A model generated the notes under the pieces. The model searched no databases and was not told where the DNA came from. It saw only the letters and a program-made list of their open reading frames with translations. A stretch of DNA of 63,635 bases, the filler included, from Reclinomonas americana ATCC 50394 (Eukaryota), in NCBI GenBank assembly GCA_048213135.1. It is 15 parts of 14 records of this genome, joined end to end, with 100 filler letters (N's around TTAATTAATTAA, not from the genome) between each part and the next. Parts side by side here need not be neighbours in the genome. Positions count along the whole stretch, not along the records: positions 17,394 to 25,988 come from PS016054.1; positions 26,089 to 32,084 come from PS016055.1; positions 32,185 to 40,372 come from PS016056.1; 12 more parts are not named here. One strand, 5' to 3'. A program made the position numbers and the translations under genes. Positions 20,501 through 40,515 of the stretch are shown here, in pieces. Numbering within the stretch: position 1 is the stretch's first letter; each line of letters opens with the position of its first letter.

Positions 20501-22005
20501 TCCGACTATGCCGGCCTCAAAGGTCGCGTGTTGTGGGTCGGCGACAAGCCGGTCATTGGAGCGCGATATCAGTTGTGTGCTCGAGGGGCAGAGATGAAGG
20601 CTGCTCCTGAAGATTGACTTGCCTTTTCGCGACAGAATGTGGACTGGTTTTGAGACTCCAGAGTCGCTGGCCAAGAAGCTGAATGCGGCTGCGCAAGATC
20701 CCACCTCGTCCGACGGGTACTCGCTGGTCGATGTGCATGTGTGGTGAGTGAAGCGGGAAAGGGNNNNNNNNNNNNNNNNNNNNNNNNNNNNNNNNNNNNN
20801 NNNNNNNNNNNNNNNNNNNNNNNNNNNNNNNNNNNNNNNNNNNNNNNNNNNNNNNNNNNNNNNNNNNNNNNNNNNNNNNNNNNNNNNNNNNNNNNNNNNN
20901 NNNNNNNNNNNNNNNNNNNNNNNNNNNNNNNNNNNNNNNNNNNNNNNNNNNNNNNNNNNNNNNNNNNNNNNNNNNNNNNNNNNNNNNNNNNNNNNNNNNN
21001 NNNNNNNNNNNNNNNNNNNNNNNNNNNNNNNNNNNNNNNNNNNNNNNNNNNNNNNNNNNNNNNNNNNNNNNNNNNNNNNNNNNNNNNNNNNNNNNNNNNN
21101 NNNNNNNNNNNNNNNNNNNNNNNNNNNNNNNNNNNNNNNNNNNNNNNNNNNNNNNNNNNNNNNNNNNNNNNNNNNNNNNNNNNNNNNNNNNNNNNNNNNN
21201 NNNNNNNNNNNNNNNNNNNNNNNNNNNNNNNNNNNNNNNNNNNNNNNNNNNNNNNNNNNNNNNNNNNNNNNNNNNNNNNNNNNNNNNNNNNNNNNNNNNN
21301 NNNNNNNNNNNNNNNNNNNNNNNNNNNNNNNNNNNNNNNNNNNNNNNNNNNNNNNNNNNNNNNNNNNNNNNNNNNNNNNNNNNNNNNNNNNNNNNNNNNN
21401 NNNNNNNNNNNNNNNNNNNNNNNNNNNNNNNNNNNNNNNNNNNNNNNNNNNNNNNNNNNNNNNNNNNNNNNNNNNNNNNNNNNNNNNNNNNNNNNNNNNN
21501 NNNNNNNNNNNNNNNNNNNNNNNNNNNNNNNNNNNNNNNNNNNNNNNNNNNNNNNNNNNNNNNNNNNNNNNNNNNNNNNNNNNNNNNNNNNNNNNNNNNN
21601 NNNNNNNNNNNNNNNNNNNNNNNNNNNNNNNNNNNNNNNNNNNNCATGCTCTTGTCTTCGCTTCTTTCTCTCTCCCTCACGGTGCTTCTCCCTTTCTTGC
21701 TTACCGACTCCCCTCCTTCGCCTCCTCCTCCCCTCACTTCTAATTTCTAGTCTCTCTCGTTCATTCCCCCTGTTGCCCTGGTTCTCTTGATACTTTTTCC
21801 GTTCTGTGCACCGCGCTCTACGCATCCTCAGCTTCCCTTTCTTTCTTCCCCTTTCCCCCTTCCCCCCTTCCCCCCTTCCCCCCCTCTCAGGACCATGACC
21901 GTGGCCGACGTCGTCCGCTGCGTCTCCCTGCTGGACCCCAACAAGGTGGCCGTGGTGCTGCCCGACGAATTCGCCCTCCTCATCGCCCAGAATGTGAAGC
22001 ATTGA
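17564..22005 (+). CDS. GxGYxYP-motif protein (putative glycoside hydrolase), multi-exon, 5' end in gap
   Basis: Motifs LQGLLAR, YLADYAVF, LGWG, SFLMTDGDNVQW, RGQVPIGWTLAP, APSGAGYLYP, GYSLVDVHVW and VVLPDEF. Stop at 22005. Confidence 0.85.
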
Positions 22006-22267
22006 ACGCGACACGAGTGTTTCTTCTCATGTATCAAAATGGCTCTCGCCACCGACTGGCTTTATGCATCATCATCATCATCAAAAATTTTGGCAACGTG
22101 GGGGAGAAAAAGGATCAATACTACACAGAGTGAGGAGCAAAGAGGTCGGTGCGGCGAGAGCGCATGGCAGAACCTAATGGAAGGGAAGGAGCAGGGAAGA
22201 ACACATCTACATCGACCGAGTCGATCGACAATAACAGAATGCAAAATGAGATTAGGGAGCGGCGTCG

Positions 22268-22273
22268 TTATTG

Positions 22274-22337
<64 letters not shown>

Positions 22338-25300
22338 TGCCGTCTCCGCTCCTGCAACGCTGCAATCTCCTGCTGCAGCGTGCCGAGTGTCTTGCGCAAC
22401 TCCTTGACGCTCTCCACCAGCGGCGCCACCAGCTGCGTGTACGCCACACCCTCTGCCGTGCGGTCGGGACGAGTCGTCACCGCCTCCGGCAGCACCTCAT
22501 GCACCTCCTCGGCAATGAAGCCGTGCTGCGTGCGCGAGTCGCCAATCATGTTGTACGTCACGCCACGGAGGTTGAGCACGCGCTGCAGCGACTCGGCACC
22601 ACCGAGCGTCACAATGTCGGTCTTGTAGCGCGCCGAACTGGTGCTGAACAGGGTGCCGCGAATGAAAATGTCGCCGCTGTGACCGTGGAAGATCACGTTG
22701 GAGCTCCACTTGGTGTCCTGCTCGGGGTGCGCCAGGTTCGGCGCAGAGAGGTGCGCCGAGAACACCGCCAAGTTGGCGCCGTCCACACCCAGCGACCAGC
22801 TCTTGGTGTTGTCGGCCGGTTGCGAGAAGACGAGCGATGATGGCACTCCGTCGACCGCGCGAATGGTGAGCGGCTTGGCGAAGCGATGGAACTGTGAAGT
22901 GGGGAGAAGGGGGAGGGAGAAGGGGTAAGGGAAAGGGGGAAGTGGAAGGGAAAGGAAAAGGGGAAAGGAGAAGGAGAACAAGCTAAGGAGCGCAATGCCA
23001 TCTCTTCTATTCTCTCTCTCTCTCTCTCTCTTGCTTTATCCCCTCTCCTTTACCGACAGTTAGCGCACTCGAGACACACAATATGCAACCACCTCTTCTG
23101 ATGCACGAAAATTCTCTCTTTCCATCACCGCCGGCATGCTTTGCCTCTCCATTGCTCGCTCTGTCTTCTTCTCACATTCTCTCGACAATCACTTCTCTTC
23201 TCAAGCTGTCTCGGTTTAAGAACTCTGCAACTGAATTGGTCTTTCATGCATCCTCTCCTCATCAACAGGAATGGCAAACTCTGTCTCCCCCACACTCTCT
23301 CGTTTCTGCACCCCGTACTTGATACCCTCGCTCTCTTCCTACGACATGCATGTGCCATCTCGTCCCTCTTGTCATTGTGTCTCATCCCGGTGCTTCCGTT
23401 TCTTTCGTCCACGGATCACAACACATGCACTCTTGTCCGCATCCCTCCCTCTCTGCCGCACACCAACACCTCGCACCCTTCTTCTCTCTCCTTGCCATCC
23501 CTCGCTCTCTTCATCCGACACACTAAAAACGCATGCACCATCTTCCTTTTGTCATTTTATCTCTCAGCTGTTCCGTTCCCCCAGTAGCTCTCCTCGTTTC
23601 CTCCCTTACTCGCTTTCCCTCTTCTCTCTCTCTTCCCTCTTCCTCCTTTTCTCTTCCCTCTACTCCCTTCCCCCTTCCCCCTTCCTCTCTCCCTTCCCCC
23701 TTCCCCCTTCCCCCTTCCTCCTTCTCCCTCTTCTCCCTCCAACTCACCCCTTGCGTGCATCCGTCCACCCCGAGGCTGCTCACGTGCAGCGAGCTGGAGG
23801 AGCGGAAACCATCCACACGCCACTGCAGCGGCGACACATCCGTGTCGGCGCCAATGGCCACCGACGATGCGTTGATGCGCACCGGCGCCGAAGTGTTGCC
23901 CGACTGCAGCGCCAGCTCACGCGACACCGACGACGACAACGCTTGCGCCGTGATGCGCGACGTGGTGGCCGATGTGATCACCGAGACGGCGCCGTTGAGG
24001 ACGGTGCGCGTGGCCGGCGAGAGGACCACGTTGCCGTGCGGCGACGAGAGGCTCAGGCCGTCGAGCGTCGAGCGCAGCTCGCCATAGTTGCCGAGCGTCG
24101 TCAGCGACGACACGGTCACGTCGCGTCCGGCGGCGGCCTTGAGCGTCAGAGCACCCGCACTGCCAGACTGCAGCGTGAGGTCGCGAGTGCTGCGAATGAC
24201 CTGGGCGCACGTCTGCAGAGTGCCAGAGGCCGGGCACAGGTTGAGGTTGCCGTTGACGGTGGAAATGAGGTTGTTGGCCGACGAAGGCGAAATGACCACC
24301 ACCGAGCAGTCGGCGCCGGTGAAGCCGGCGTCGCAAGTGCACGTTCCCGTGCTCGTGTCGCACGAGCCGGCAGCGGAGCACTGGTTCGGGCAGGCGGCTA
24401 CAGGGCGGAAGAAAAATGGCGTGAGTGAGTGAGTGAGCAAGAAAAGAGTGGAGGACGCAAGCACACGAAACTCGGCGTGGCCGGTCCGCTGCCAATGGCC
24501 TGTGAGCCGCCGAGTGTCCATGTCAACGAGTTGTTGCCACCAGCGCGGGTGCCGAAGCGGTGACGCGAGCCGAGCACCAACTGCGCCTGCTGGCTGGAGA
24601 GCGCCAGTCGCAGCACATTGTGCTGCGTGCCCTGCACAAACTCTGTCGGCTGGCCCTGGTTGACTTCGCCCGGCGCAATGTTGTTGCGAGCGCCGTATCC
24701 CTGCTGCGCGGTAAAGTAGCCAGTGTTGCGGTAGCCAAAGGTAATCAAGTAGCCCGACTGCACGGCCGTCACATTGTCGACCAACGCCTGCAGGCTGCCC
24801 GGCGCCACAGAGCAGTCCGCGCCGCCGTAGCCACTGGTGCAAGTGCACACACCAATTGTGGTGTCGCACAGACCGCGCTCAGAGCAGCCATTCGGGCACG
24901 TCTCTGTGTTTGGGAAAGGAGGGGAGGGAGAGAGTCGGTAAGTTTCGAGGGAAATGACACAGAAGCAATCAGCTACATCGACGCACTTTGCTCGCACGTC
25001 TGAATCGTCGCATCCGCAGTCACCGTCACGCCGTTCAGCGTCCACGTCACCGATGCGGCCGTCAGCGGCACCGAGAACACACCCGAGTGGCGGCCAGGAG
25101 CAAAGGCCGTTGGCTGACCACGATCTGTGGAATAGCGAATATAAAATGTCAGTGACGATGCGCTCCCCTTGCCGTCCACAAGTCACTCACCGGCCGTGTC
25201 GGCGAAAAAGTTGAGACTGCCTATCGGCAGCGGCACAGTGAAGCCGTTGCGATTGTCAAAGCCAAACACAATGACTCGGCTCTCGCCAGTCAGGCGCGTG

Positions 25301-28300
25301 CACTCGGCAATCGGCTGCACCGCCGTCGGCGCCACCGCGCACGACAGACCGCGGAAACCGGGGAAGCAAGTGCATTGACCGATCAGCGTGTTGCACAGGC
25401 CATGACCACTGCAGTCGCTCGGGCACGGCACTGGTGCAGGGGAAAGAGAACGGTGAGCAGACAAGAAAAAGCACGTGAGGAGGTGAAGGCACTCACCGAC
25501 GCAGCGCTTGTCGGCACGGGTGGCCGCCGCCTCGTTGCCGTCCAGGGCCCAGGTGACAGAGTCGACAAACGGAGCACGGAGCACCGAGCGCTGGCGCCCA
25601 ACGTCGAACTTACTGAGCAGCGTCACCGGGGACGACGCGCCAATGAGGAAGTTGGTCTCGTCGTTCGGCGCAATCGTCTTGACCACCGTCGTTGGGTTCG
25701 CGTAGCCAAACACAGCCGTGAGCGCACCGGCGGCGTTCTCCTGCACGCACTCCAGCACCGGCACCAGTGATGCAGGCGCCGACTCGCAAGCGTCGCCAAA
25801 GTAGCCGTCGGCGCAGTTGCACTGGCCGCGCAGGGTGTTGCACGAGCCGTGGCCGTTGCACTCGAGCTCCTCGTCGGACACGACGACGGTCGGGCACGAC
25901 TGGGTGGTCTCCGGGAAGCCGCAGACGGTGCACGATTCTGAGGGGGGAGTGGGAGGGGAAGGGATGAGAAAAGGGAAAAGGGAAAAGGNNNNNNNNNNNN
26001 NNNNNNNNNNNNNNNNNNNNNNNNNNNNNNNNTTAATTAATTAANNNNNNNNNNNNNNNNNNNNNNNNNNNNNNNNNNNNNNNNNNNNAAAATGAAAAAG
26101 AGAGAAAGAGATGCTGTCTTCCCTTCTTACCCTTCTTGCCCTCTCTCACCCTCCCTTCCCCCTCTGCCCCCTCTCACCCTCCCTTTCCCTTCTGCCCCTC
26201 TCGACTCACCGTCACACGAGGGGCTATCCGTCGCCGCGCGCACCACCTGACTGCCAATCTTCCACGACACACTCTGCGTAAAGGCCACCTGCACGGCACC
26301 AAAGACACGCGCACCGGCAACCGAGCGGCTGCTAAACACCGACGGCTGCGTCTGCGCCTCCAGCGGAGTGACTCCGTCCGAGCTCAGCAGCACATTGGCC
26401 GCGGTGCCGGCCGGCAGCACCACATTCACCGCGTTGGAGTTGATGTAGCCGAAAATGGCAAAGTAGCTGTCGACTTCGGCGTCGAATCGCACGCAATCCA
26501 GCTGTGGCACAACAGGCGCATCCGCCACACTGCAGTCCTCGCCACCAAAGCCCTGATCGCACTCGCACACGCCGGCGACGCACTCGCCGCGACCACTGCA
26601 GCTGTTGGGGCACGGCGCCTGGCACACTGGCGACTCGTCGCTGGCCACCGCCGACAAGGTGAACAGACGCCACGCCGTCATGCCGTCCGACGTGCTCGGA
26701 GCCACACGGGCCTCAAAGGCGTAGCTAAAGGTGCCCGGATAGAAGGTGATGGGCTGTGCGCGCGACTGCGGTGACGGCAGGAACTGGTTGTTGTCGCCGA
26801 CTGGGATGGTGCGCGACACCGGGTTGGGGTTGCGGTAGCCGAAGCGAGCCACGCGGCCGAGCTCGGCGTCGTCGCGCACGCACTGCAGCGTCGGCACCAC
26901 GTCGGCCAGCACCTTGCTGCAGTCGTCGCCAAAGTAGGGATCCTTGCACTCGCACTCGCCATACAGCGAGTTGCACGAGCCGTGCGCCGCATCGGTGCAC
27001 CCGTTGGGGCACGTGCGCACACAGCGCGCGGCATTCAGCGTTGCCGTGGCCGTCAGTGAGCCCACTGTCCACGTGAGATCGCTGACTGGGTTGTACGGCA
27101 CACGGAACACCTGGTGGTGCTCGCCCGCCAAGAACAGGTCGGGCTGGCCGCGATTCACCGTGCCCGGCGAGAAGAAATTGTCGCCTGCCGTCTGGTGAAT
27201 ACCACGAGTCTCCGTCGACGGGTTCGAGTAGCCAAACACGGCGGTGAGGGCGCCAGAGCGCGACTCCTCGAGGCACTCAAACACAGGCACAATCGGACCG
27301 ACGGCCACACTGCACGTGTCGCCGGAGAAACCCGTCGAGCAAGAGCACCGTCCAACCGTCTGATCGCACACACCGTGGTCGCCGCAGTCCTTTGCACACG
27401 GGTACAGGCAGCGCGGCGAGTCGGCCGAGGCCGTCAGTGCCGGCGAGTCGTCCAGCGTCCAGCTCACACGCGAGTCGGCGCTGAACGGCACCTGGAACAC
27501 GAAGCGGCGGCGGCCAGTGAAGAAGTTGACCGGCTGACCGGCATTGACCGAGTCCGCGCCGTCCACCTGGTTGCGGGTGCCGACGGCAATGGAGCGCGGA
27601 TACTGATTGCTGTTGACGTAGCCAAAGTGCGCCACCAGCTGGCCGGCATTCGCCTGGTCGACCGACACGCACTCGAGAATCGGCTGCACCGTCTGCAGAT
27701 CGATGCGCGAGCAATCGGCACCCGTCCAGCCCTTGTCGCACGCGCACTTCAGCGTCGAGTAGCTGCACGAGCCGTGGTCGCTGCAGAGCGAGCGCGGGCA
27801 CTGAGCGGGGCACGTGACGGTGAAATCGGACGACGAGGTGGCCTGGAAGTTGTCGATGCGCCACGACAGCGACGAGTCGGCATCGTGCTCCGTGAGGAAC
27901 ACGGTCGGGTGGCTGCCGGGCTTGAACGACGTCGGTTGACCGAGGTCTGTGTGGAACGGGGAATGAGAAAAGAGACGCGTGGGGAAAAAGAGAGAAGAAT
28001 GGGAATGCACACAAACCAGCATCGCCCGGAGAAAACTGGTTGTCGTTCTCGCCAATCTGCACCGTGCGCGTCACCACATTCTCGCTGTCGTAGCCCCACA
28101 CCGAGATCAGTGTGTTGGTCGTGGTGTTGACGAGGTTGCAGTTGAGACGCGGGCGCACAGGTGCCGTCGGCTGGCTGCAATCCAAGCCGCCAAAGCCCAC
28201 GTTGCACTGGCACGAGCCGGCCACGCACGATCCGCGCAGCGAGCAGTCATTGGCACACGTCGATGCCAGCAGCGACACGTCGTGGCTGCCGCCGGTGAAA

Positions 28301-29256
28301 GCCAGGCCAAACGAGTCGGATGCCACCGCGCTGCCGGCCGACGCGCCGCCAAAGAGCGACACGAAAATGCCATTGGCGGCGGAGCGATCGGGCAGCGAGC
28401 GGCTGCTCGGCACCAGCTGCGAGCAGTCGGCGCCCGTGTAGTTGGTGAAGCACTGGCACACGCCGGAGACGCAGAATCCCTGTCCCGAGCAGCTGTTCGG
28501 GCAGGTGGTGCTCTTGCAAAAGTTGGTCGACGGGGGTGGGGAGAGGGTGCCAATGAAGCGCAGGCCGTCGGAGAAGATGGCGAGCGAGGAGCCGGTGGAG
28601 TTGAGCTGCGCGGCGAAAGGGAAGGGGGTTAAGGGGAAGGGGATGAAAGGAAAAGGGATGGAAGGAGAAGGGACGGAAAGGAGGAAGGGATGGAAGGAGA
28701 AGGGATGGAAGGAGAAGGGATGAGGTGAGGAAGGGATGAAAAACGAGGAAGGGATGAAGTGAGGAAGGGACAAGGAAGGGATAAGATGAGGGATGATGGG
28801 GAAGGGGGAAGGATGGAGAGAGAAGAGGAACGAGAGCTGGAAGCAATGCAAGGGCTACAGAATTACGAGATGATGAGAGACAACAAACGAGTGAGATAGA
28901 GTCAGAGCGACATGACAGGGCGACGAGAGACAGACTAAGCAAACGAAAACAGAAAAATAGAATACAGAGACGCAGTTGGGAGCAACAGGCACATTGCGGA
29001 TGAGTAAAAAACAATAGGCAGGAGGGGGAAGCAAATGAGCGCAACAGTGCGAGCAACGTGAGCAACACAGAGCATGCTGACGGACCAGAGAAAGAGTGGG
29101 AAACGAGAGAGAGAGAGAGGAGAAATCACAATCGGGAGCACAAGGCACAGGGCAGAATAGTGAAAACAACAGGAAGGAGGGCGAAGCAAATGAGTGAAGC
29201 AGTGTGACCAAGGTGAGGAGCAACGAGCACGCTGACAGACGAGAAAAAGAGTGGGA

Positions 29257-29297
<41 letters not shown>

Positions 29298-32200
29298 ACA
29301 TTCCCTTTCCCAAACACAAACCTGCTTGAGTGCCCACTTGTCGACCGTCAACTCGTCAAACGTGGTGTCACACGGAGTGTTGATCAGCGTGCGCGTGCGG
29401 TTCAGCAACGTCTCCGTGTCGACCAGGCGCCGGGTGATGCGAGTGGTCTCGGTGGTGTACTGCGACGACAGTGTCGTCCAGGTCGAGTTGAGCATGTTGA
29501 CCAGAGTCGTGGTGGTGCTGATCGAGGTCTCCAGCGTCGTGACACTCGTGGTGAGGTCGATGAAAGTCGAGTTCAGCGAGGTGACGTTGGTGCGCAGAGC
29601 GGCGATCTTGGGCGCACAGCACGACGACGCATCGTCGGCCAGCGTGGCAAAACCGCCACGCACCGCCGAGGTCGTGACGCGTGGCTTGGCGTTGTTGGCG
29701 TACAAGGCCAGCGAGCGGAATTCGGCGGCCGAGATGGTGGTGAAGCCGGAGCCGCTCGAGCGCGGATCGCTGTCGTTGTTGATGTTGCCCAGGGCCAGCG
29801 AGCCCTCACCGACCATCACACCCGACGTCGGACGGAAACGCCAGTCGAGGTTGGCGGGTTCGTCGGCCGAGGTCGAGTTGGAGCGGGTGAGGCGGCCGAG
29901 AATGATCTCGCCGTCGTGGTTCTCCACGTACAGTCCGCGGTCGGTGCCGTTGAAGCGCGCGCCAATGGCGGTGAAGATGAGAGTGGGTTGGTTGAGTTGC
30001 AGCTGCAATAGGGAAAGGGAAGTGGGGTGAGCGAAGGGAGAAGGATGGGGGAAGGAAAGGGGAAGGAAAGGGGAAGGAAAGGGGAAGGAGAGGGGAAGGA
30101 AAGGGGAAGGAAAGGGGAAGAGTGGGAAAGAGTGTGGGGAAAGAGTGTGGGGAAAGAGTGTGGGGGAAGAGTGTGGGGGAAGAGTGTGGGGGAAGAGTGT
30201 GGGTGAAAAGTGTGGGTGAAGAGTGGTGAAGGGCGCATATCAACAAGATGCACAATAGCAACGAAGCACAAAGCACAGTGACGATGATCAGTGAAGAAAG
30301 CAAAGATTGGTGACACACACAGCACAAGAGAATTGCAACGCAAAGGCCTTCTCTTACATCAACCCGCTCCCTCTTCCGCCCATCTCCGCAACGCAACTCC
30401 AGTGAATGGCGACAGAGCGAAAATCGACGACGAGTTGCCGTTGAGCTCCGTCGACAAGGCAGTGAGCTGCAGCTGGTCGCTCACTGGGCGCAAGAAGAAT
30501 TCGTCAGTGAAAAAGTGAAAGAGACAAGAAACAAGAATGCTGACGACGCACAATTCTTCTCAAACGTGTAGTTGATGTTGGGATCGGAGAAACCGCCACC
30601 AGCAGCTCTGGTATCGCGCGTCGTGTACGAAGAATGCGTGTCACCATCATCCACGGATAGATACTTGCCGCGTTTCGGAGGACCTGCAGTGACAAGTGGT
30701 TGATAAATGGCTGAAGCTCTCGCGCAGAACGAAAACCAGTACCTTGATTGATGGGCACTTCGGGCTGCCAACTCATTCGCGATGTACTGATCATGTTTGC
30801 CGATTGTATCATCGGAGCGTCGATACCGTTGGAGCCCATAATCTGCAAGGCATAAGTGAGTGTGGCTGAAAAGAGGGAAGGGGAATACAAACATAAACGC
30901 ACCATCAAATTGTCGTTGGTGGTCCAGTTGCCACGGAGCGGCCAGTACGCCCACAGGAACTGCAGGCCGATAAAGATGACCACAATGGCCACCACAATCC
31001 ACATGGCAATCCAGATGCCACGGCGGCAGCACTGCGCGGAGGACGAGATGAGCACGAAGTAGGAGGGAGGGAGAGAGAGAAGGAGAGAAAGAGGGAGAAG
31101 GGGTTGTGAGAGAGAAGGAGAGAGAGAGACACACAGATACACACGCACACATACACAGAGAAAGAGAGAGAGAGAAAGAGAAAGAGAGAGAGGGAGAGAA
31201 AGAGAGAGAAAGACAGTACTGAATTAAAAAGACTCGCCTTCTGGCGGAATGGCTCGGCATCGACGTGAGTCTTGTGGTGGTCCATGAAGTGGATCTCACG
31301 ACGCGTGTCGTGCTGCGAGAACGAGCGCTGGCCAAAGAGGACGCGAAGACGGTGCTTCTCGGCATCGCGAATGCCTGTGATGTGGAGGTGTGAGGATAGT
31401 GGGGAGGAGAGGAGAGAGGGAAGGACTGCTCACCAGGAATGTCGCTCTGCGCCGAGTGGTAGCTGCCTTCGTCCTCGCGACGAGGAGTCGAGTCGAAGCG
31501 AACCTCTCCGCGGGTGGCGAAGCTGATGACCATGTGGGGTGAGCTTCCAGGAATCGGAATGACAGAATCAGAGGGAAGACTCACCGTGCACTGTCGGGGA
31601 ACTCGAGCGTGGTCTGCGGCGGCTCAGTGCGTGCACTCTCCGGGAACTCAATGGTGGTCGTCGGCAACTGTTGCAGCTGGCGACGGTCGGTCTTGGGGGT
31701 GGCGGGGAACTCAATGTCGGTGGCCGACTTTTCGAAGTCCTCGCCGGCCTTGCGTGCCTCGGCGAGGTAGTCGAGGGGGCCGCGGGGGGTTCTGAGAAGG
31801 GGGCAGAAGGGGAAGGGTGAGGGGAAGGGTGAGGGGATGGGTGAGGGGAAAAGGGGGAGGGTGAGGGGGAAGGGTGACGGGATGGGGGAGAGTGAATGGT
31901 GGGGAGTGAAAGAGGGAGTGAAAGAGGGAGTGAAAGGGGGAGTGAAAGGGGGAGTGAAAGGGGGAGTGAATGGTGGGGAGTGAAAGAGGGAGTGAAGGGG
32001 GGAGTGGAAGGGGAGTGGAAGGGGGAGTGGAAGGGGGAGTGGAAGGGGGAGTGGAAGGGGGAGTGGAAGGGGGAGTGGAAGGGGNNNNNNNNNNNNNNNN
32101 NNNNNNNNNNNNNNNNNNNNNNNNNNNNTTAATTAATTAANNNNNNNNNNNNNNNNNNNNNNNNNNNNNNNNNNNNNNNNNNNNAAGTCACCCGACACGC

Positions 32201-35200
32201 CCGACATGCCCGACAGCGTGGGCTCGGGGGTGATGCCGGCGTCGGAGATCTGTGCAATGGGAGGGATGGAGTGAGGCGCATACTCGAAAAGAGGGACGAC
32301 GACGACGACGACGACGCAACGGTGGATTCACGCTCCATCTCGGCTCCAAAGCGCGCCAGTACCAGCTGTGCGTCGGGAGCAATGCCGGAAAAGTCGCTCA
32401 GCTCGCGGCGAGTTCCGCGAGTGCCGCCCGGTTGCTGGGGGAGGGGGGAGGGTGAGTAAGGGAAAGGAGAGGGAAGGGAGAGGGAAGGGTGAGGGAGGGG
32501 GAGAGGGAAGGGAGAGGGAGGGGGAGAGGGAAGGGAGACGGAGACGGAGAGGGAAGGAAGAGGGAAAGGGAGGGGAGAAGGGAGAGGGAAGGGAGAGGGA
32601 AGGGAGAGGGAGGGGAGAGGAGAGGAGAGGGAGAGGGAAGATAGGGTGAATTACGGGAAGGATGGTGTGAACGGTGACACGACAGAGATGCGCAGAACGA
32701 CACGAACAAGGGCTCAGTAATGAGTGGAACCAAGACAGCAGGTACACGTGACGAGGGGAGACTTAGGAGTGCACGGATGCGAAAAATCGATGAAGGCACA
32801 GAAGTGAGAACTCAATACAAGTGTCAACAAAAAATGCGAGAAGGACGCAGGAGTGAGTGGCTCCGAAAGATTTGACACACGATCAGCTGAAGTGAAGAAA
32901 GAGAGGAGGAACGTGCAGAACGATAAGCGAGCAAAGGCCGCAAGTGTGAGAAGAGCCAAGAGAATTGAACGAGTGTGCAGAGAATGCAGAGTGAAACAGA
33001 AATAAAGAAGTGGGCTGAGAAAAGAAGAATGCAAGTAGCAGAATGACACACAAATCAATGTACGAGCACACAAATGAAAGTGCAGTAAGTGCAGAATCAC
33101 ACAAATGAGGGAATGGGCTGAGTGCGTGACTCCAGCGGAAAGAATACAGAATATGTGGAGTGAGAGAAGAGCAAAAAAATACAGCGGAAAAGGTGTGCAA
33201 AAACTGAATAGAAATCAGTAATGTGTTCGAAATTCTTCGCTGCACAGACAAGCAATGAAAGCAACGCTGCAGAGTAATGCTCACAGCTTCCCAGTCAGCT
33301 GTCCCCCTGTCCTCTCTCTCCCCACTCCTCCCCAAGAAACGTCGCACTCACCTCACTGAGGAACCGCGCCGAAGCCGACGTCGAGTCTCCCGTGGCCGTC
33401 AGCAGCGACGAGGAGGACGCGCCTGCCGCGTCCGCTGCCGCCAAAGCCTGTCCTGCGGCCGCAGAGGATGCGCTCGAGGGAGAAGTCGGCGGAGAGCTTC
33501 CGACTGTGAATGGTGGAGCGCGCAGAGACATGTGCGATTCAGTTGATCGGCGTCAACACGGCGTTGTTGCTTGTGTGTATGTGTGCCGCACAATAACAAA
33601 GTCTAACCACACACTCACTCACTGAATCACTCAAAGAGAAACCAATCACAAAACCAAATGCACTCTCTCTCTCTCTTTCTCTGTGTGTCTGTGTGTCTTT
33701 ATGTCTGTCTCTCAGAGTCTATGCAGCACGGTGGTTTCCTTCCGACCCCTCACACGCACTGCTCTCTGAAACAGATGGTGCGTCTGAATGTGATTACGGA
33801 CAAAAAACCAACGGAAATACTCCAAATATGGAAATCAGGAGGACGCGGGACGCTGTGAAGTAAAAAAGGGCGGAAGGGAGGGAGGAGAGGGAAGGGGAAG
33901 GGGAAGGGGAAGGGGAAAGAAAGACTGACTAGATTTATAAAGAGAAAATTGAGGCAACGACGATGCAAGGAGAGATTGAGAAAAATAGAGAAATTGACAC
34001 ACAGAGAAGTTGATTGGAGGGAGGAGGTGAGCGGAGGGTAGAAAAGTAACGGGGTGAGAGCGCAGAGAGCGCGAGAAACTGAAAAGAGAAATGCAAAGAG
34101 GTGACGGGAAGCAACGTGAACAAGGTGAAACTGCAAGAAGCGCAGAAAAGGCAAAGAGGAATGGAAACAAAGAACAGAGAGTCAGAGCGCGAGAGAACAA
34201 GAGAAGGCAGAAGGAGAACAAAATCGAAAAGTGGAAGCAGAAGAAACATGAGGAGGAGCAGAAAGCACTGGAAACGAGATGAGAGGAGAACAACGAGAGA
34301 ACAAAAGCAATGAATTAAAATAAGAAAGAAGAGGCGGAGGGGAAAGCGAGGCAACAGCACGATCTGAAGAGCGCGAGAGCGGCAAAAATGGCCCAGTAGA
34401 TGGAGACGCAGACTCTCGTGAAACTGCCTCACGTTCCTCTCCTTTCCCTGCTTCCTCGTCTCATTTCTCTGCTTCTCTTCTCCTTCCCCTGCTTCCTCTT
34501 CTCGTTTCTCTCACTCCTTCTTCTCCTTTCTGTGCTCCCTCCTCTCCTTTCTCTGCTCCGTCTCTCTCCTTTCTCTATTCTCGCGTCCCCCCTCATTGCC
34601 CCTCTTCTCCTTTCTCTGCTCCTTCTTCTCCTTTCTCTGCTTCCTCCTCTCCTCTCTTTGTCCCTCTTCTCCTTTCCCTGCTTCCTCTTCTCCTTTCTCT
34701 GCTCCGTGTTCTCCTTCCTCTGCTCCGTCTTCTCCTTTCTCTGCTCCGTCTTCTCCTTTCTCCCTTCCCCCTCCCCGCCACTCACCCACTGGCCTCGGTT
34801 GCACCACCTGCTGCGGCGGCGCATTGCCAAGCAGCGCTGGACGCGGTCGCGGGGGCTTTTGCGGCTGCGTCGAGTGCGTAATGACGTGCGCCGTGGGCAC
34901 GGCGCTGTCCGACGACTCGACCAGTGTCGGCGGCGACGAGGAGGACGGGTTGGGTGGCGTGAACTGCGGTTGCGCCGCGGCACCCGTGGCGGAGCCTTCG
35001 TCGGAGGGCGGGGTGGTGCGAATGGGGAAGCCGATCGAGCCCACCTCGCTCGTGTCCTCCGGGGGCTCTGTGTTGAAAAGCAAGAGGTGTTTAGCAGAAA
35101 AGAGGAGGAGGATGGTTCGTGAGTGGAGAGAGTGGGCGCAACGAAGTGCGGCGGCACCGTGATGCACGGCGGGTGCCAGCGACAGATCGCTGCGCTCCGC

Positions 35201-37254
35201 AAAGGAGCCGAGTGAACCGCCGCGGCTGCTGCTCGAGCGACTGCCAGGCAGCGAGTGCGGGGCAAACGGGCGCAGGGTGGAGCCGACGCCGGCAGTGGGA
35301 GCCACCAGCACGTCGGGCGATGGCGCATTCACCACGGGCGTGCCGAGACTGCGTGACGAGTTGCGTGCGCTGCTGCTCTGCAGCGAACCGACGACTGCGA
35401 CGATGGGGGGAGTGAGGGTGAAGTTGTGGAGAAGGGAAGGGGGGAAGAGACGCACTACTTTGCTCGCGGAACGTGCCGCCTTCGGATCCGGGAGGAGAGG
35501 GATCCTGGTCGCGGGCCATCCATGGCGCCTCGCGCTCCGAGGACATCTACAAGGGGGGAGGGTGGGTAAAGGAGAAGAGGGAGGTGCAACACGACAATGA
35601 ATCAGGTCACTCAGAAGGCACAGGAGGCTGCAAATCCACAGTGGATTTGAAGAACAATGCACAGAGTGCAAAGAGAAAGCCCAGAGTGAAAAGATTAACC
35701 CAGCACGCCGAGGAATCACAGTGGCGTTGAAACAGAAAAGACCCAGCACGCCGAGGATTCACGGTGGCGGGCAGAGACGATAACAGATTGACAGGGTGGA
35801 GAGACACATTGACACAAGAGTGGAAAGAGAACTCCGTGGCAAGGCACAGAGACTCACGGCGGTGGTGAGCACAGTCAACGACACACAGTGCAAGAGAAAA
35901 CATAGTGACACGAGAAATCCACCACACGCATGTAAGCGCAGAGCTGAATGACACGTCGATAACAGAACGCAGAGACAGCGTGGAACGAGAAACCCAGCAC
36001 GCCGAGCCATGCAAACGCATGGAGTGCAATGTCACGACACGCGAGATCGCGAGTGGACATTCCTTCTCACTCCCCGTCCCTTTTCCCACACACGCACACA
36101 AACCTGAATGCTGCTGCTGACTTGACGCATCCACTGCTGCACAAGCTCCGCGTCACCGCTGTGGTCGGCAAAGACGGTCTCCTCGGGCGGTCGCGCCGTA
36201 ATGACAGCAAAGCCAGTGCTCTTGGGTCCGGCAAACACCGGGCGCACCGAGGCGTTGCGCAGCAACAGGCGCTTCTTCAGCGTGCCTTGCAGGTCGGAGT
36301 AGATCAGCAGGTGGTGGCCCTGCAGCATCACAAAGACGCGCTCGCCGTCGCCGCCTGTTGTTCGTCGACAGGGTGGTGAGGTGTGTGGGAAAGGGGAAGA
36401 ATGAAGGGTCAGATGCACGCAACGGCCCATGTTGAGGTAGCCAGCAAAGGCCGGAGGTGGAAGATCGCCGAGCGGGTGGGTTGACTGCGTAGAATAAGTG
36501 CATGAGCGGGGTGGGGGAAGGGAAAGCACAGCAAAAACGGTGGAGAGGAAGCGCACGGTGCAAGCAAGTACGACACTCAAAAGCAGAGAGCGGAAAATGA
36601 AGCGAATATCAAGGGGAAATGTTGCTGCTGAGCGCAAGAGAGCGAGAGAGAGAGAGAGATAGAGAGAGAGAGAGGAGGGAGGAAGAGGGAGAGACAGACA
36701 GAGAGAGCGCGAGATCGCCGCAGTGACTGCAGCAGAGCGCAGAGAAGCACGAGGGATTATCAATGAAGCAGAGAGAAAGAGGCGCTGAGTGCAAGAGCGT
36801 GAGGTATTCAGCGTCAGAGAATGTGACACAGAGAGTGAAATAGATGGCCACTGAGTGAAGCGAAAGGTTGCTGTGATAGCGTACGACACAAAGCCGAACA
36901 GATTGCAAGAGAAAGAGCTGGTGAGGGGAGAGAGAGAGAGCGAGAGAGAGAGAGACTCGACAAAGAGAATGCCAAACAGAGAGAAAGAGAGACGGAGCCA
37001 GAGGCAGAGACGCCACTGAGGGAAGCGATAAACAATAGGAAAATGACCGCCGAAGTGACAGTGAACACGAAACAAAGCCGAACAGATTGCAGGAGAAGAG
37101 AAGCTGCTGAACAAAAGAGGGAGAGAGATTGTGTGATGAAGACGGCGGCAGAGAGAGACGGAGACAGCGGCAGAGACGACCACTGAAGAATATGCCGACT
37201 TGACGGTGAACACGACAATGCGGAACAGAATGCAAGAGAAGAAAAGCCGCTGAG

Positions 37255-37332
<78 letters not shown>

Positions 37333-37999
37333 CGAGACGAGACGACGACGACGACGTACGTACGTACGTAACGAACGTACGTACGTACGAACGAACGAAC
37401 GAACGAACGAACGAGACGACGACGACGAGTAGAGNNNNNNNNNNNNNNNNNNNNNNNNNNNNNNNNNNNNNNNNNNNNNNNNNNNNNNNNNNNNNNNNNN
37501 NNNNNNNNNNNNNNNNNNNNNNNNNNNNNNNNNNNNNNNNNNNNNNNNNNNNNNNNNNNNNNNNNNNNNNNNNNNNNNNNNNNNNNNNNNNNNNNNNNNN
37601 NNNNNNNNNNNNNNNNNNNNNNNNNNNNNNNNNNNNNNNNNNNNNNNNNNNNNNNNNNNNNNNNNNNNNNNNNNNNNNNNNNNNNNNNNNNNNNNNNNNN
37701 NNNNNNNNNNNNNNNNNNNNNNNNNNNNNNNNNNNNNNNNNNNNNNNNNNNNNNNNNNNNNNNNNNNNNNNNNNNNNNNNNNNNNNNNNNNNNNNNNNNN
37801 NNNNNNNNNNNNNNNNNNNNNNNNNNNNNNNNNNNNNNNNNNNNNNNNNNNNNNNNNNNNNNNNNNNNNNNNNNNNNNNNNNNNNNNNNNNNNNNNNNNN
37901 NNNNNNNNNNNNNNNNNNNNNNNTAGAGTACGGTAGGTGTTCGTTCGTCGTCGTCGTCCGTCGTACGTACCGTACCGTACCGTCCGTCGTACGTACGAC

Positions 38000-38042
<43 letters not shown>

Positions 38043-39209
38043 CTGTGGTGCAGAAGGCGAGAGAGAGGGAGACAGGCGGCACGGTGGCACAACGACCACT
38101 AGGTGAAAGATTCACGATTGTCAAAAAAACAGGAGAAATGCTGCCGAGTGCATGAGTGAGAGCTACTCAGTAACACAATCAAGCACCTCTCGACAGACAC
38201 AGCCACCCAACAACAAGAACCACAGTGACAACGCCCTTTCCCCTTCTTCCTCACCTCCCTCTGCAAGGCCTTCTCACGCGCCACGCTCTCCGGCGACGAC
38301 TCGCGCTGCCTCTGCCGCGTCTCAATCGTCTCCTTCCAATCATTCGACGTCGCCAACGCACTCTCATGACTCGCCGGCCGATCCGGACACACGACCGCCC
38401 ACACGGCTTGCATTGCCGGTGCCTCGCCGCCGTCCTGCACGCTCGAGGCCGACGACGCGCCCGGCGAATCCGTTGTCCCGGCCGCGACGGGGATGCGAAG
38501 TTGCAGGGCGTTGGGACGCTCGGCGGAGCGCGTCACCGGAATGCCGAGCACCGACACGGAGCCCAGAGGCACGCGTGTCTAAAAACGCACATCATGCCCA
38601 AAACAAGAGTGATCAGTGGGGAAGAAGATGGGACGCGCACATGACACACACACACACACAGGCGATCAACACAGACACAGACAGACATGCATGTGTGTCA
38701 AGAACAAAAAGATGCGCGCGCGAAGAGTGAGAGAGTGTGAGATCACGCGCGTGGGCATGTCCTGCTCATGCACACTCTCTCCTCTCTTGCTCTCCCCCCC
38801 TTTTCTCTCTCTCTCTCTGCACAGTGGGTGCTCGCGTACCGATTCGTCCTCGTAGCAGAAGATGGTGCTTCCACGGAACTCGAACCAACTATTTTTTTGT
38901 GAGTGAGAGAGAGTGAGTATCGGAAGATTAGCACACACACACATACTCAAGAGTGAGCAAACGCAACTTTGACTGCCATTGACCGCGGTCTGTGAGTGTG
39001 TGACACAGAGAGAGTGAGTGTGTGAGAGAGTGCGTGTCAATGAGTGTGCAGACGTAACGTCGTCGACTGAGCCAGCCGCGTTTGATAGGCGGCTCATCGC
39101 GATCCTGTGTGCGCGAGAGTGTGCGTGTGAGCAACTCTGTGTGTGTATGTGTGGCACTCACTCTCACTGACACACACGAAACTCGATCGGCCGAGGGAGA
39201 GGTGCCCAT
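22268..39209 (-). CDS. Giant predicted type II membrane protein: PH-PH, disordered region, TM, coiled coil, EGF/FGY-GQP array, fibre-like segment, Peptidase_S74 chaperone, polyQ
   Basis: About 25 exons join in frame from ATG 39209 to TAA 22268 with phase-compatible splice sites. Continuity across the gaps at 37435-37923, 32085-32184 and 25989-26088 is inferred. The TM-to-stop half is well supported; its attachment to the PH half is less certain. Confidence 0.75.
22271..22333 (-). repeat. Coding CAG repeat, 21 Gln immediately before the stop
   Basis: (TGC)n on the plus strand, in frame with the S74 exon. Confidence 0.9.
22334..22640 (-). other. Peptidase_S74 / intramolecular chaperone auto-processing domain with trailing coiled coil
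   Basis: TSSARYKTDI..L..V..LRGVTYN....HGFIAEEVHEVLPEAV........GVAYTQLVAPLVESVKEL matches the S(D/S)xRxKxxI ... GFIAQEVxxVxPExV ... VxYxxLxxxLxxAxKEL signature. Confidence 0.92.
24300..28510 (-). repeat. Protein-level array: 10 tenascin-type EGF-like repeats interleaved with 8 ~90-aa FGY/GQP beta domains
   Basis: Repeated CPxxCSxxGxC..C.C..G(F/Y/W).G.DCS units, each followed by VxPxLxCV...A.FGY.N.N....I..G..N.F.P.....GQP..F..G.H..VF.V......(V/L)(T/S)W.L. Confidence 0.92.
36105..39105 (-). other. Two PH-like domains at the N-terminus of the giant gene
   Basis: PH1: PIKRGWLSRRHRGQWQSNWFEFRGSTIFCYEDESTRVPLGSVSV...DWKETI. PH2: FAGYLNM..GERVFVMLQGHHLLIY...LLRNASV...VQQWMRQV. Both have the invariant C-terminal helix Trp. 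Confidence 0.8.
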
Positions 39210-40515
39210 TGCAATGAATGAACGTCACACTCTCTCGCTCTCCTTCTCTGTGTGTGTACGCGCGTGATCGTTTTCCTGAGTGACTGCAATGCTTCAAGCG
39301 AGTGTGGCGATCGATCGATTCAGCGACACCTTTCCTTTGCTGCTGTGAGCGTGAAACAGAGATTGTGGTTTGTCGGTCGGTTGGTCGACTCGGAAAAATT
39401 GTGCGCATTTTTTTCTTTTGAAATGCAGCGGTATTCATTCGCCAATCGGCACGCTTCACAGCGGTATGTGACGGTGTGTTGGAGGTAATTTTTGAGCGGT
39501 GTGGGTGGGTGGGAAATAGCGGCTGGCGATCGCCAGCGCAAAAATAACGGATTTTTTGTGCGTCAATCGCTTGCCAGAGGGTCAACTGCAAAGGACCGTG
39601 GATTTCTGTGACGGGGCTAATCACACCCGAAAGCTTGAACTCGATCTCCAACCGTGCAGTCCCAGAATTCAAAGATCGAAATGATTGCGAAGGCAGACCC
39701 TGCAACTGCAACAGCGATGCCCAGCTCCGGATCCGCTGTTGCAAGGCGCAAACAGATTGCCCTCCGCTGTGTTGTGGCGTTCCCGGATTTAGAGGTGCTT
39801 GAAAACCCTGCGCGTGCATTTGCCTGGCAACAACAGCAGTGGAGGCGCAGGACCCGGCAGTGTCAGTGGCAGAGGCCCTCGTCGAGGAGCGATCGCGCTG
39901 CCTGCTTCTGCTACTTCGCGCTCGACGTCGACGAGTGTGATGAATGCGGATTCCGTGTCACACACAAAAAAAGTGAATACATTTAGAAAGAAGTAACAGC
40001 TGCAGATCTGTGTGCAAAGTGAAAACACGCCTGCTACGCTGTTCGAATTCGGTTTCTCACTAAAGCTATTTGACAGGCTCATTCACGTGCATTTGCAGGT
40101 TGTGCCATATATCTTCATCACCAGAGTGTTTCTTTGTTGCAGAAGAGTGCAGCTGTGCGACTTTGCTCCGGGAAAGACGAGCAATGATTTGTCCTGCAGA
40201 CAACTTCCCACATTTTCTCTCCTTTTTCGCGCGCATGGCCACCCGTGCTGCTGTGGCCTCGCCTGCCAACAACAGCAGCGGAGGCGCAGGACTCGGCAGT
40301 GGCGCCCGTCGAGGAGCGACTTCTGCTTCTGCAACTTCGCACTCGACGTCGACGAGTGTGGTGAATGCGGAGNNNNNNNNNNNNNNNNNNNNNNNNNNNN
40401 NNNNNNNNNNNNNNNNTTAATTAATTAANNNNNNNNNNNNNNNNNNNNNNNNNNNNNNNNNNNNNNNNNNNNATCTCTCGTACGCATCCAGCCTCACCAT
40501 TTGATTCTTCGTGCA

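Follow-up and report, generated by a model that had tools for sequence, protein, structure and literature searches.

Can a tail-fibre chaperone of phage type serve a membrane-anchored surface protein of a eukaryotic cell? The question is raised by a gene on the minus strand of a 63,635-nt stretch of the genome of Reclinomonas americana ATCC 50394 (assembly GCA_048213135.1), the whole of which is referred to here as the window (63.6 kb). S74/ICA domains trimerise the tail spikes and fibres of phages and then cut themselves off. The reuse of the ICA domain, a phage module, by eukaryotes is a textbook case, and its only other carriers described so far in eukaryotic cells are, to our knowledge, transcription factors of the MYRF type. 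An earlier reading of the same stretch (the original prediction) had proposed that such a domain terminates a receptor-like protein with a transmembrane (TM) anchor and EGF domains. We followed up this proposal computationally, and our conclusions on gene structure have the DNA sequence itself as their basis. The core architecture, consisting of a TM helix, a stalk, an array of EGF and FGY/GQP modules, a beta-rich segment and a terminal S74 domain, is real and well supported. It probably belongs to a cellular protist gene that is rich in introns (at least 25 exons, and about 2600 codons or more) and encodes a type II single-pass membrane protein. This core, from TM to S74, is more likely than a single-gene model that also includes upstream exons for PH domains.

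A terminal S74/ICA domain spliced to an EGF-bearing ectodomain

Peptidase_S74 (PF13884) was matched in the last exon over the complete profile (1-58 of 58), with an E-value of 5.3e-13 and 49.5 bits against a curated cut-off of 22. The open reading frame (ORF) scanned was 22268-23035, and the match maps to 22639-22475 (-). A Ser-Lys dyad is present, formed by Ser85 (codon 22639-22637) and Lys90 (codon 22624-22622), and both residues occupy invariant columns in an alignment with six library relatives (seven sequences). The claim of a terminal Peptidase_S74 domain is thus borne out by a hidden Markov model (HMM) hit above threshold as well as by the dyad. The spacing of five between the two residues equals that of S578/K583 in MYRF, given as its catalytic dyad in excerpts of PMC3742443. 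The predicted helix that follows the domain has the heptad core V-L-V-L-L-L-I-L, equalled in 186 of 5000 shuffles, and it may correspond to the trimerising coiled coil at the C-terminus of the MyRF ICA, as excerpts of PMC8326128 describe it. The reading frame closes with a 22-residue polyglutamine (polyQ) tail encoded by a CAG repeat and a TAA stop (22270-22268). Ahead of the S74 domain, itself terminal, we found a 269-aa segment that is probably beta-rich, and rich in Ser, Leu, Ala and Val, in agreement with the beta-rich segment that had been proposed.

The S74 exon matches 39 PHROG tail-fibre families (best E-value 1.6e-21), at the C-terminal profile ends in the best 25 of the 39. To the C-terminal S74 domain of a 799-aa metagenomic protein it shows 45% identity across 110 aa, with TSSARYKTDIV facing TSSRRFKTDIV around the dyad. 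A profile built from the seven aligned sequences matches the solved structures 8jov (7e-16) and 6f45 (8e-15) and the MYRF ICA 7dc3 (5e-10); this profile is six-sevenths prokaryotic-type, and the matches indicate family membership and no special closeness to MYRF. Two other results were not used, namely a Sarcoglycan_1 match on the beta exon (E-value 0.0032, 17.3 bits against a cut-off of 32.5), set aside as weak, and a phmmer search of the PDB with the S74 exon as a single sequence, which returned designed helical repeats alone and was judged spurious.

The S74 exon shares one contig (21645-25988) with three EGF/FGY exons, which makes a contaminant or a mis-join unlikely at this point. The upstream exon ends in GGG followed by a GTGAGT donor, the S74 exon is preceded by a pyrimidine tract of ~110 nt and CAG, and the phases are 0/0. 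Since the S74 ORF contains no Met ahead of the dyad, and the pyrimidine tract and CAG precede the exon, it cannot stand alone. The motif SLGVDG occurs once on either side of the last intron (856 nt), the stop comes directly after the reading frame of the S74 exon, and no coding signal was found downstream.

An array of EGF and Ig-like modules

The 10 EGF and 8 FGY/GQP domains counted in the original prediction recur in the same numbers in the spliced model. The array exons were obtained with a simple exon-chaining script and then inspected by eye; six successive introns of the gene are in phase 1, and exon 24397-23748 also carries most of the beta-rich segment. All five array ORFs scanned have EGF_Teneurin or EGF_2 matches above the Pfam cut-off, and EGF_TEN reached 62.2 bits, under its cut-off of 65. 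The EGF domains alternate with a module of ~95 residues marked by the motifs FGY and GQP, and an HMM of one EGF+FGY unit matches this gene alone within the window.

No Pfam or NCBIfam model matched the FGY/GQP module in scans of the array exons, and NCBIfam gave no match for the array, beta or S74 exons. A 9-row alignment of the module (27946-24472, -) has G, Y, N and F invariant. An AlphaFold2 (AF2) model of the EGF+FGY unit, made from a 9-row alignment, has a mean predicted local distance difference test (pLDDT) score of 90.3. Foldseek returned nothing for this model at an E-value of 0.001 or better, and a VIA search returned generic Ig-like sandwiches, with a best Z of 6.6 and no specific family. 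As modelled, the FGY/GQP module is an Ig-like sandwich outside any assigned family.

Membrane anchor, stalk and topology

The TM exon encodes CCRR-GIWIAMWIVVAIVVIFIGLQFLWAYW-PLRGNWTT, and its hydrophobic segment (GIWIAMW...WAYW) is the sole 19-residue window with a Kyte-Doolittle mean above 1.6 in the ~2600-aa model. It was indeed the single TM helix of the original prediction that we recovered, and the claimed lack of a signal peptide agrees with the N-terminal piece of the model, which has no such window and begins without a hydrophobic segment. The 723 residues before the helix contain 2 N-x-S/T sequons and 5 Cys, and the 1856 residues after it contain 15 and 83, respectively. Because of this asymmetry and of the RR on its N-terminal side, the helix is predicted to be a type II signal anchor, the orientation proposed earlier.

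The stalk exon, too, has the heptad character ascribed to it: in its C-terminal 100 residues, 16 of 28 a/d positions are occupied by L, I, V, M or F, against a shuffle mean of 10.2, and just 1 of 2000 shuffles reaches this value. It matched no Pfam family and had no homologue among library proteins of 399-2000 aa. NCBIfam matches of the stalk to SlaB and IcmG/DotF were far below threshold and were not used.

Cytoplasmic exons and PH-type domains

Upstream of the TM exon, the first of three juxtamembrane exons opens at a strong acceptor, and no in-frame Met lies ahead of the third; together these features imply that the gene must extend beyond the scaffold linker at 32085-32184. The third of these exons (31374-31238) can use either a GC donor or a same-phase GT 18 nt downstream. 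The first (31791-31585, -) encodes three spaced (I/L)EFP copies (DIEFPATPKTD, TIEFPESARTE and TLEFPDSAR), a motif for which we know of no family.

On the other side of the linker, the Ser/Pro-rich region that had been claimed was found as a series of Ser/Pro/Ala-rich exons, for each of which the proposed frame has the highest codon log-odds. They matched no Pfam family, and exon 32249-32185 runs open into the contig end.

Of the two PH domains claimed further upstream, the second (PH2) was recovered in part, as a sub-threshold Pfam match, and the first (PH1) as a spliced motif only. PH2 is probably a PH domain: its nearest named ESM Atlas clusters are PH families (top score 0.89, rated a lead only), and its single-sequence AF2 model has six strands followed by a C-terminal helix. 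The mean pLDDT of 42 of that model speaks less well for the assignment, as do a Pfam PH match (E-value 0.0037, profile 20-104 of 105) of 18.2 bits, under the 25.1 cut-off, and a phmmer search of PH2 against the PDB that found no PH chain. Adenylate kinases returned by that search (E-values 0.19-0.28) were judged chance matches. The spliced PH1 reads IKRGWLSRRHRGQWQSNWFEFRGSTIFCYEDES..., which, compared by eye with the PH consensus, presumably resembles beta1-beta3; no HMM matched PH1, exon 38578-38255 having been scanned alone. A start at 39209 would give MGTSPS, a putative N-myristoylation site of the pattern MGxxxS.

Gene model and assembly

The scaffold that makes up the window consists of 19 contigs (1.1-6.5 kb each), joined by placeholders or longer N runs. 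The placeholders, fifteen in number, each 100 nt long and built as N44-TTAATTAATTAA-N44, are spread across it (e.g. 2556-2655 and 40373-40472), each carrying stops in all six frames, and there are four longer N runs besides. Gene models that exceed one contig therefore depend on scaffold order. The present model covers four contigs (21645-25988, 26089-32084, 32185-37434 and 37924-40372), and its continuity over the breaks between them is predicted from scaffold order and matching splice phases. Its features are collected in Table 1.

Table 1. Exons, domains and assembly breaks of the gene model, in the direction of transcription
Feature	Span	Strand	Exons or detail	Basis
Putative first exon	39174..39209	-	ATG at 39209 (MGTSPSADRVSC)	First ATG after in-frame stop; GT follows
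PH-like domain 1	38255..39104	-	39104-39059, 38989-38968, 38888-38840, 38578-38255	AG/GT junctions, phases fit
N gap, 489 nt	37435..37923	.	Between PH1 and PH2	
PH domain 2 (probable)	36104..36484	-	36484-36424, 36354-36104	Pfam PH, sub-threshold
Ser/Pro/Ala-rich exons	32185..35546	-	35546-35459, 35394-35158, 35067-34786, 33503-33352, 32434-32321, 32249-32185	GT-AG, phases
Artificial scaffold linker	32085..32184	.	N44-TTAATTAATTAA-N44; separates Ser/Pro-rich from juxtamembrane exons	
Juxtamembrane exons	31238..31791	-	31791-31585, 31522-31434, 31374-31238	GTGAGT or GTGAGC donors, phases fit
TM exon	30903..31031	-	Helix 31019-30942	
Stalk exon	29322..30002	-	Heptad (coiled-coil-like) stretch 29621-29388; rich in N-x-S/T sequons	
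Array, 10 EGF + 8 FGY/GQP modules	23748..28605	-		Pfam EGF families, splice sites, unit HMM
Array exons		-	28605-28011, 27946-26210, (linker), 25937-25497, 25430-25191, 25124-24987, 24903-24472, 24397-23748	
Artificial scaffold linker	25989..26088	.	N44-TTAATTAATTAA-N44; inside array intron	
Last exon	22268..22891	-	End of beta segment, S74/ICA, heptad helix, polyQ tail	Pfam, splice sites

The host genome is GC-rich, as are the exons of the gene. About two dozen GT-AG introns were modelled, with no frame disruption across about 2600 codons; their lengths fall at 59-90 nt or at 0.2-1.8 kb, and in most of them the sense strand is rich in pyrimidines. Between 20000 and 50000 of the window, the purine fraction of the opposite strand in introns is 0.7-0.95 (200-nt windows). 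The bias of intron sense strands towards pyrimidines is so strong that the direction of transcription in this interval can be read from strand composition. Two introns of the gene start with a purine-rich run directly after GTGAGT (23747-23000 and 34785-34400).

In the surroundings of the gene, flanking ORFs for cytochrome b561 (1150-1602, -), peptidase M28 (7419-7787, +) and a GxGYxYP third domain (19057-19908, +) represent ordinary cellular genes. Two further ORFs, 51028-51480 (+) and 54770-55141 (+), match the NHL repeat (E-value 2.8e-07) and, sub-threshold, REJ (E-value 4e-05, 22.8 bits, cut-off 25), respectively, and may belong to a further large gene for a surface receptor, transcribed from the plus strand. 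The FGY/GQP module was not found near these two ORFs of the window, though REJ receptors of other protists share it.

Relatives of the distal module and of the array

Relatives were searched with word-sharing filters and length windows, in collections that do not include the proteins of this organism itself, so that finding none of the same architecture is weak evidence. Among 2648 candidate library proteins of 315-2000 aa, 29 matched the S74 exon (best, 42% identical); PF13884 is annotated in every one of the 29, and an EGF family in none. The top relative among them (P0001, 1430 aa) has internal and C-terminal S74-like stretches, each with S-x-x-R/K-x-K. The ESM Atlas places the S74 exon with bacterial and phage tail-fibre clusters. 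In IMG/VR, 81 stretches encode relatives that are 28-51% identical, the best being 39-40% identical over about 100 aa, and two short matches of 43 residues reaching 51%. GTDB species genomes contain three relatives, in Aquimarina (37%), an archaeal metagenome-assembled genome (MAG; 32%) and an Acidimicrobiaceae MAG (32%). The two best loci each encode a protein (442 and 573 aa) with S74 as its sole Pfam family. We consider the distal module to be of phage or prokaryotic type, as judged from these similarities.

The array behaves differently. A search of one array exon (578 aa) against 1.84 billion representatives gave 2921 matches at an E-value of 0.001 or better. We scanned 30 relatives, taken from the best 150 of the 2921 and picked for a best stretch longer than one EGF, and S74 was present in none of them; REJ was found in 3, VWD in 3, and 10 were bacterial DUF11 proteins. 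Named relatives came from the EukProt transcriptomes of Gefionella and Stygiella. Against proteins of 1013-2890 aa, the array exon had 21 matches, none of which carries PF13884. A 179-aa protein (P0039), encoded on an assembled contig of 1272 nt, shares 56% identity with the array exon over residues 260-391 of the latter; the ends of P0039 are of low complexity, resemble translated intron and are placed just before the GQP motif, as in FGY1 and FGY7. P0039 probably corresponds to one exon of a related gene, carried by a related organism that has introns.

In the literature, nothing was found that joins Peptidase_S74 and EGF. The papers listed for Peptidase_S74, as represented by their titles and the start of their abstracts, deal with phages, contractile injection systems, polinton-like viruses and other topics, and with no cellular surface protein. 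Within the limits of these searches, then, no protein or paper combining EGF/FGY with S74 was found, as expected from the claim that no described family has this architecture. That claim had left unmentioned the nearest described kind, the fibre proteins of polinton-like viruses, which also end in S74.

Comparison with known systems

The closest likeness in the distal part is to phage and prokaryotic tail fibres and tailspikes, such as endosialidase endoNF and the T5 L-shaped tail fibre (6f45 and 8jov). They share with the R. americana protein an S74/ICA domain at the very C-terminus behind a (here probably) beta-rich segment, a Ser-Lys dyad followed by what is here a predicted heptad helix, and the matches to 39 PHROG tail-fibre families described above, and the expected working is alike: the chains would trimerise, fold the fibre and cut off the chaperone. 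In contrast to them, the carrier here is a spliced eukaryotic gene that encodes a membrane anchor, a cytoplasmic part and arrays of EGF and Ig-like modules; the protein stands outside any virion or injection machine, and the highest identity is about 45%, over 110 aa.

MYRF and MrfA likewise combine an ICA domain and a Ser-Lys dyad in a eukaryotic protein, and the seven-sequence profile that includes our sequence reaches the MYRF structure 7dc3. MrfA of Dictyostelium is reportedly a membrane-bound transcription factor with an ICA domain. MYRF is presented in excerpts of PMC3742443 and PMC8326128 as a eukaryotic cellular protein that reuses the ICA domain with its dyad and trimerises through it. 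In the MYRF/MrfA layout, the TM helix lies C-terminal of the ICA and cleavage frees the N-terminal part, whereas here it lies about 1850 residues N-terminal of the ICA. With the ICA extracellular and terminal and the TM helix ahead of it, cleavage would free the chaperone only and no transcription factor. Scans of the ORFs and of exons of at least 20 aa, gap sequence excepted, found no NDT80 domain. The protein is not a member of the MYRF family.

Teneurins offer a parallel of another kind. They resemble our model in type II orientation and in their EGF type, teneurin/tenascin-like, EGF_Teneurin being above its cut-off in several exons. In both, moreover, a prokaryote-like distal module is mounted on a eukaryotic stalk; for teneurin, a fusion of this kind is described in excerpts of PMC3278476. 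The distal module differs, being a beta fibre with S74 here, and no teneurin intracellular domain was found; nor did the ectodomain exons contain an NHL, YD-shell or Tox-GHH family of Pfam. The layout thus recalls teneurins while the parts differ, much as had been suggested, and the likeness is an analogy, not membership.

Viral fibres come near in overall build. In excerpts of PMC12220804, polinton-like viruses in protist genomes are reported to encode fibre proteins that are modular, reach 3.9k aa and end in S74, their modules including laminin G, collagen and adenovirus-fibre types. As far as that source goes, fibres of polinton-like and giant viruses share with our protein great length, repeated binding modules, a single C-terminal S74 and their location in protist genomes. 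The gene studied here differs from them in its introns, TM anchor, cytoplasmic region and cellular neighbours. The array, for its part, resembles two kinds of proteins, the EGF-VWD-PKD-REJ-GPS receptors of protists (Gefionella and Stygiella), in which the FGY/GQP module alternates with teneurin-type EGF, and bacterial DUF11 surface proteins, which have the same Ig-like module. Both differ at the other end, which was REJ/GPS in 3 of the 30 proteins scanned and DUF11 in 10, S74 having been found in none.

Proposed mechanism

We propose that the N-terminal ~720 residues, probably comprising two PH-type domains, a disordered Ser/Pro-rich linker and the juxtamembrane region, would stay in the cytoplasm, the single helix acting as a signal anchor. 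The membrane-proximal heptad stalk and the C-terminal S74/ICA chaperone would both bring three chains together. The ICA domains of the three chains would associate via their C-terminal helices and act as the template on which the beta-rich segment ahead of them folds into a stable, trimeric tip of the fibre, after which the Ser85-Lys90 dyad would cut the chain at Ser85 and release the last ~122 residues, polyQ tail included. This order of events is the one described for the ICA family in excerpts of PMC8326128, where the ICA trimer assembles, the preceding beta segment folds and the Ser-Lys dyad frees the ICA. What remains would be a membrane-anchored trimer, in which the 10 EGF and 8 Ig-like modules of each arm form a shaft between two trimer nodes, and the beta-fibre tip would most likely bind a ligand or surface. 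A role in adhesion or prey capture, as had been suggested, is speculative, the protist setting alone pointing to the latter, and phosphoinositide binding by the PH domains would be putative as well.

With an extracellular, terminal ICA and an anchor far upstream, cleavage would shed the last ~122 residues only and the fibre would stay on the cell. Use of the ICA in the manner of phages, rather than in that of MYRF, is accordingly the best reading by analogy; we infer trimerisation and self-cleavage on the same ground, and ligand binding by the fibre tip as well. In its full form, the proposal is tentative and falls a little short of even confidence: eukaryotes would have domesticated the chaperone of phage tail fibres a third time, independently, and for the first time in a protein of the cell surface, which would have produced a trimeric type II receptor on the teneurin principle, with three pairs of PH domains as its cytoplasmic output and the chaperone shed into the medium.

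Alternative explanations

The gene may be shorter than modelled, or its pieces may not belong together. Several observations count against a single continuous gene. The exon chain crosses three assembly breaks (two linkers and one N gap), which the original prediction had overlooked when it spoke of one in-frame exon chain; what stands of that description is the canonical GT-AG exons with matching phases. The junction 24472/24397 requires a weak GTTTCG donor, the other array junctions being clear GT-AG. An ATG lies right after the acceptor at 35546 and another, in frame, just upstream of 33503; a 400-nt stretch (34400-34800) is purine-rich, the opposite of the usual strand composition, although the well-supported last intron begins likewise; and library protein searches found no orthologue of the same architecture that would confirm the model. 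Given the two possible internal starts, the PH exons could form a separate upstream gene for a small cytoplasmic PH-PH protein, followed by a type II TM-stalk-EGF-S74 gene starting from the ATG at 35546 or near 33503. Such a division, which we hold to be somewhat unlikely, would fit the stop met after 24 codons (~36032) when the PH2 donor is read through, the assembly gap between PH1 and PH2, the linker at 32085-32184, and the 34400-34800 and neutral 33520-33800 stretches, which could be intergenic. It fits less well with the junctions, all of which from PH2 onwards have an AG acceptor after a pyrimidine tract and compatible phases, with the absence of a stop at the end of any chain exon before the contig end, or with TM-side exons that have no start. 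Moreover, sense-strand pyrimidine richness runs through most spacers between 28 and 38 kb, and the spacers 36103-35547 and 33351-32435 share it with confirmed introns, unlike the 5' flank (39.2-41 kb), which is neutral. A codon model trained on the ectodomain exons only was applied to the 17 upstream exons (13 of at least 60 nt); the proposed frame scores highest in 14 of the 17, with misses in the exons of 46, 22 and 61 nt, for the two shortest of which the score is unreliable, and the per-codon scores of introns are -0.4 to -1.0 in almost every frame. For the region ahead of the TM exon, automatic chaining of exons produced micro-exons, made one split codon a stop and broke the TM exon, and junctions set by eye were preferred. 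On balance, it is likely that the PH exons lie in the same gene as the TM-S74 part, and the N-terminal extension is regarded as probable. A different concern is that the three contigs are pieces of different paralogous EGF/FGY genes joined by scaffolding, as short contigs, placeholder joins and repetitive modules that are present in many other large protist receptors might allow. We judge this improbable, since a GT donor on one side of the linker at 25989-26088 faces a CT-rich tract and CAG acceptor on the other with compatible phases (1 and 2), the FGY-then-EGF order carries on across it, and the window contains no further EGF/FGY unit elsewhere; the EGF/FGY-beta-S74 tail on contig 21645-25988 would stand in any case.

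Taking the single-gene receptor as the preferred model, two further questions concern its origin and its processing. The large modular fibres with a single C-terminal S74 that excerpts of PMC12220804 report for polinton-like viruses in protist genomes, together with the 81 related IMG/VR stretches, could suggest that we are looking at a fibre gene, perhaps silent, that was endogenised from a polinton-like or giant virus of eukaryotes, and not at a host surface protein. About two dozen spliceosomal introns, a membrane anchor, a long cytoplasmic part and some 2600 codons without frame disruption make this highly improbable, as do the 86 flanking ORFs scanned, which match cellular families only and no viral hallmark families; over the S74 part, the viral relatives (28-51% identical) are no closer than the prokaryotic ones. 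As to processing, S74 might only trimerise the chains, or cleavage might be regulated, in which case the C-terminal piece and its polyQ tail would stay in the mature protein. The residue after the catalytic Ser would be compatible with this, being Ser where the seven-sequence consensus reads SDERLK, and family behaviour evidently varies, MyRF cleavage being independent of the upstream stalk according to excerpts of PMC8326128. Both Ser85 and Lys90, however, fall in invariant columns and the closest relative has the same TSS-R-x-K string, and we consider a protein that keeps its chaperone unlikely.

Implications

A trimeric fibre terminated by an ICA domain is here predicted in a new setting, that of a spliced, membrane-anchored host protein. 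If this is true, a phage module has been taken up by eukaryotes more than once and for a different purpose, and a second case stands beside teneurins in which a surface receptor arose from a prokaryote-type distal module and a eukaryotic stalk. The FGY/GQP module, common to bacterial DUF11 proteins and protist REJ receptors, merits a family description of its own. The protein would also offer a simple test system for the chaperone-driven assembly of trimers in the secretory pathway.

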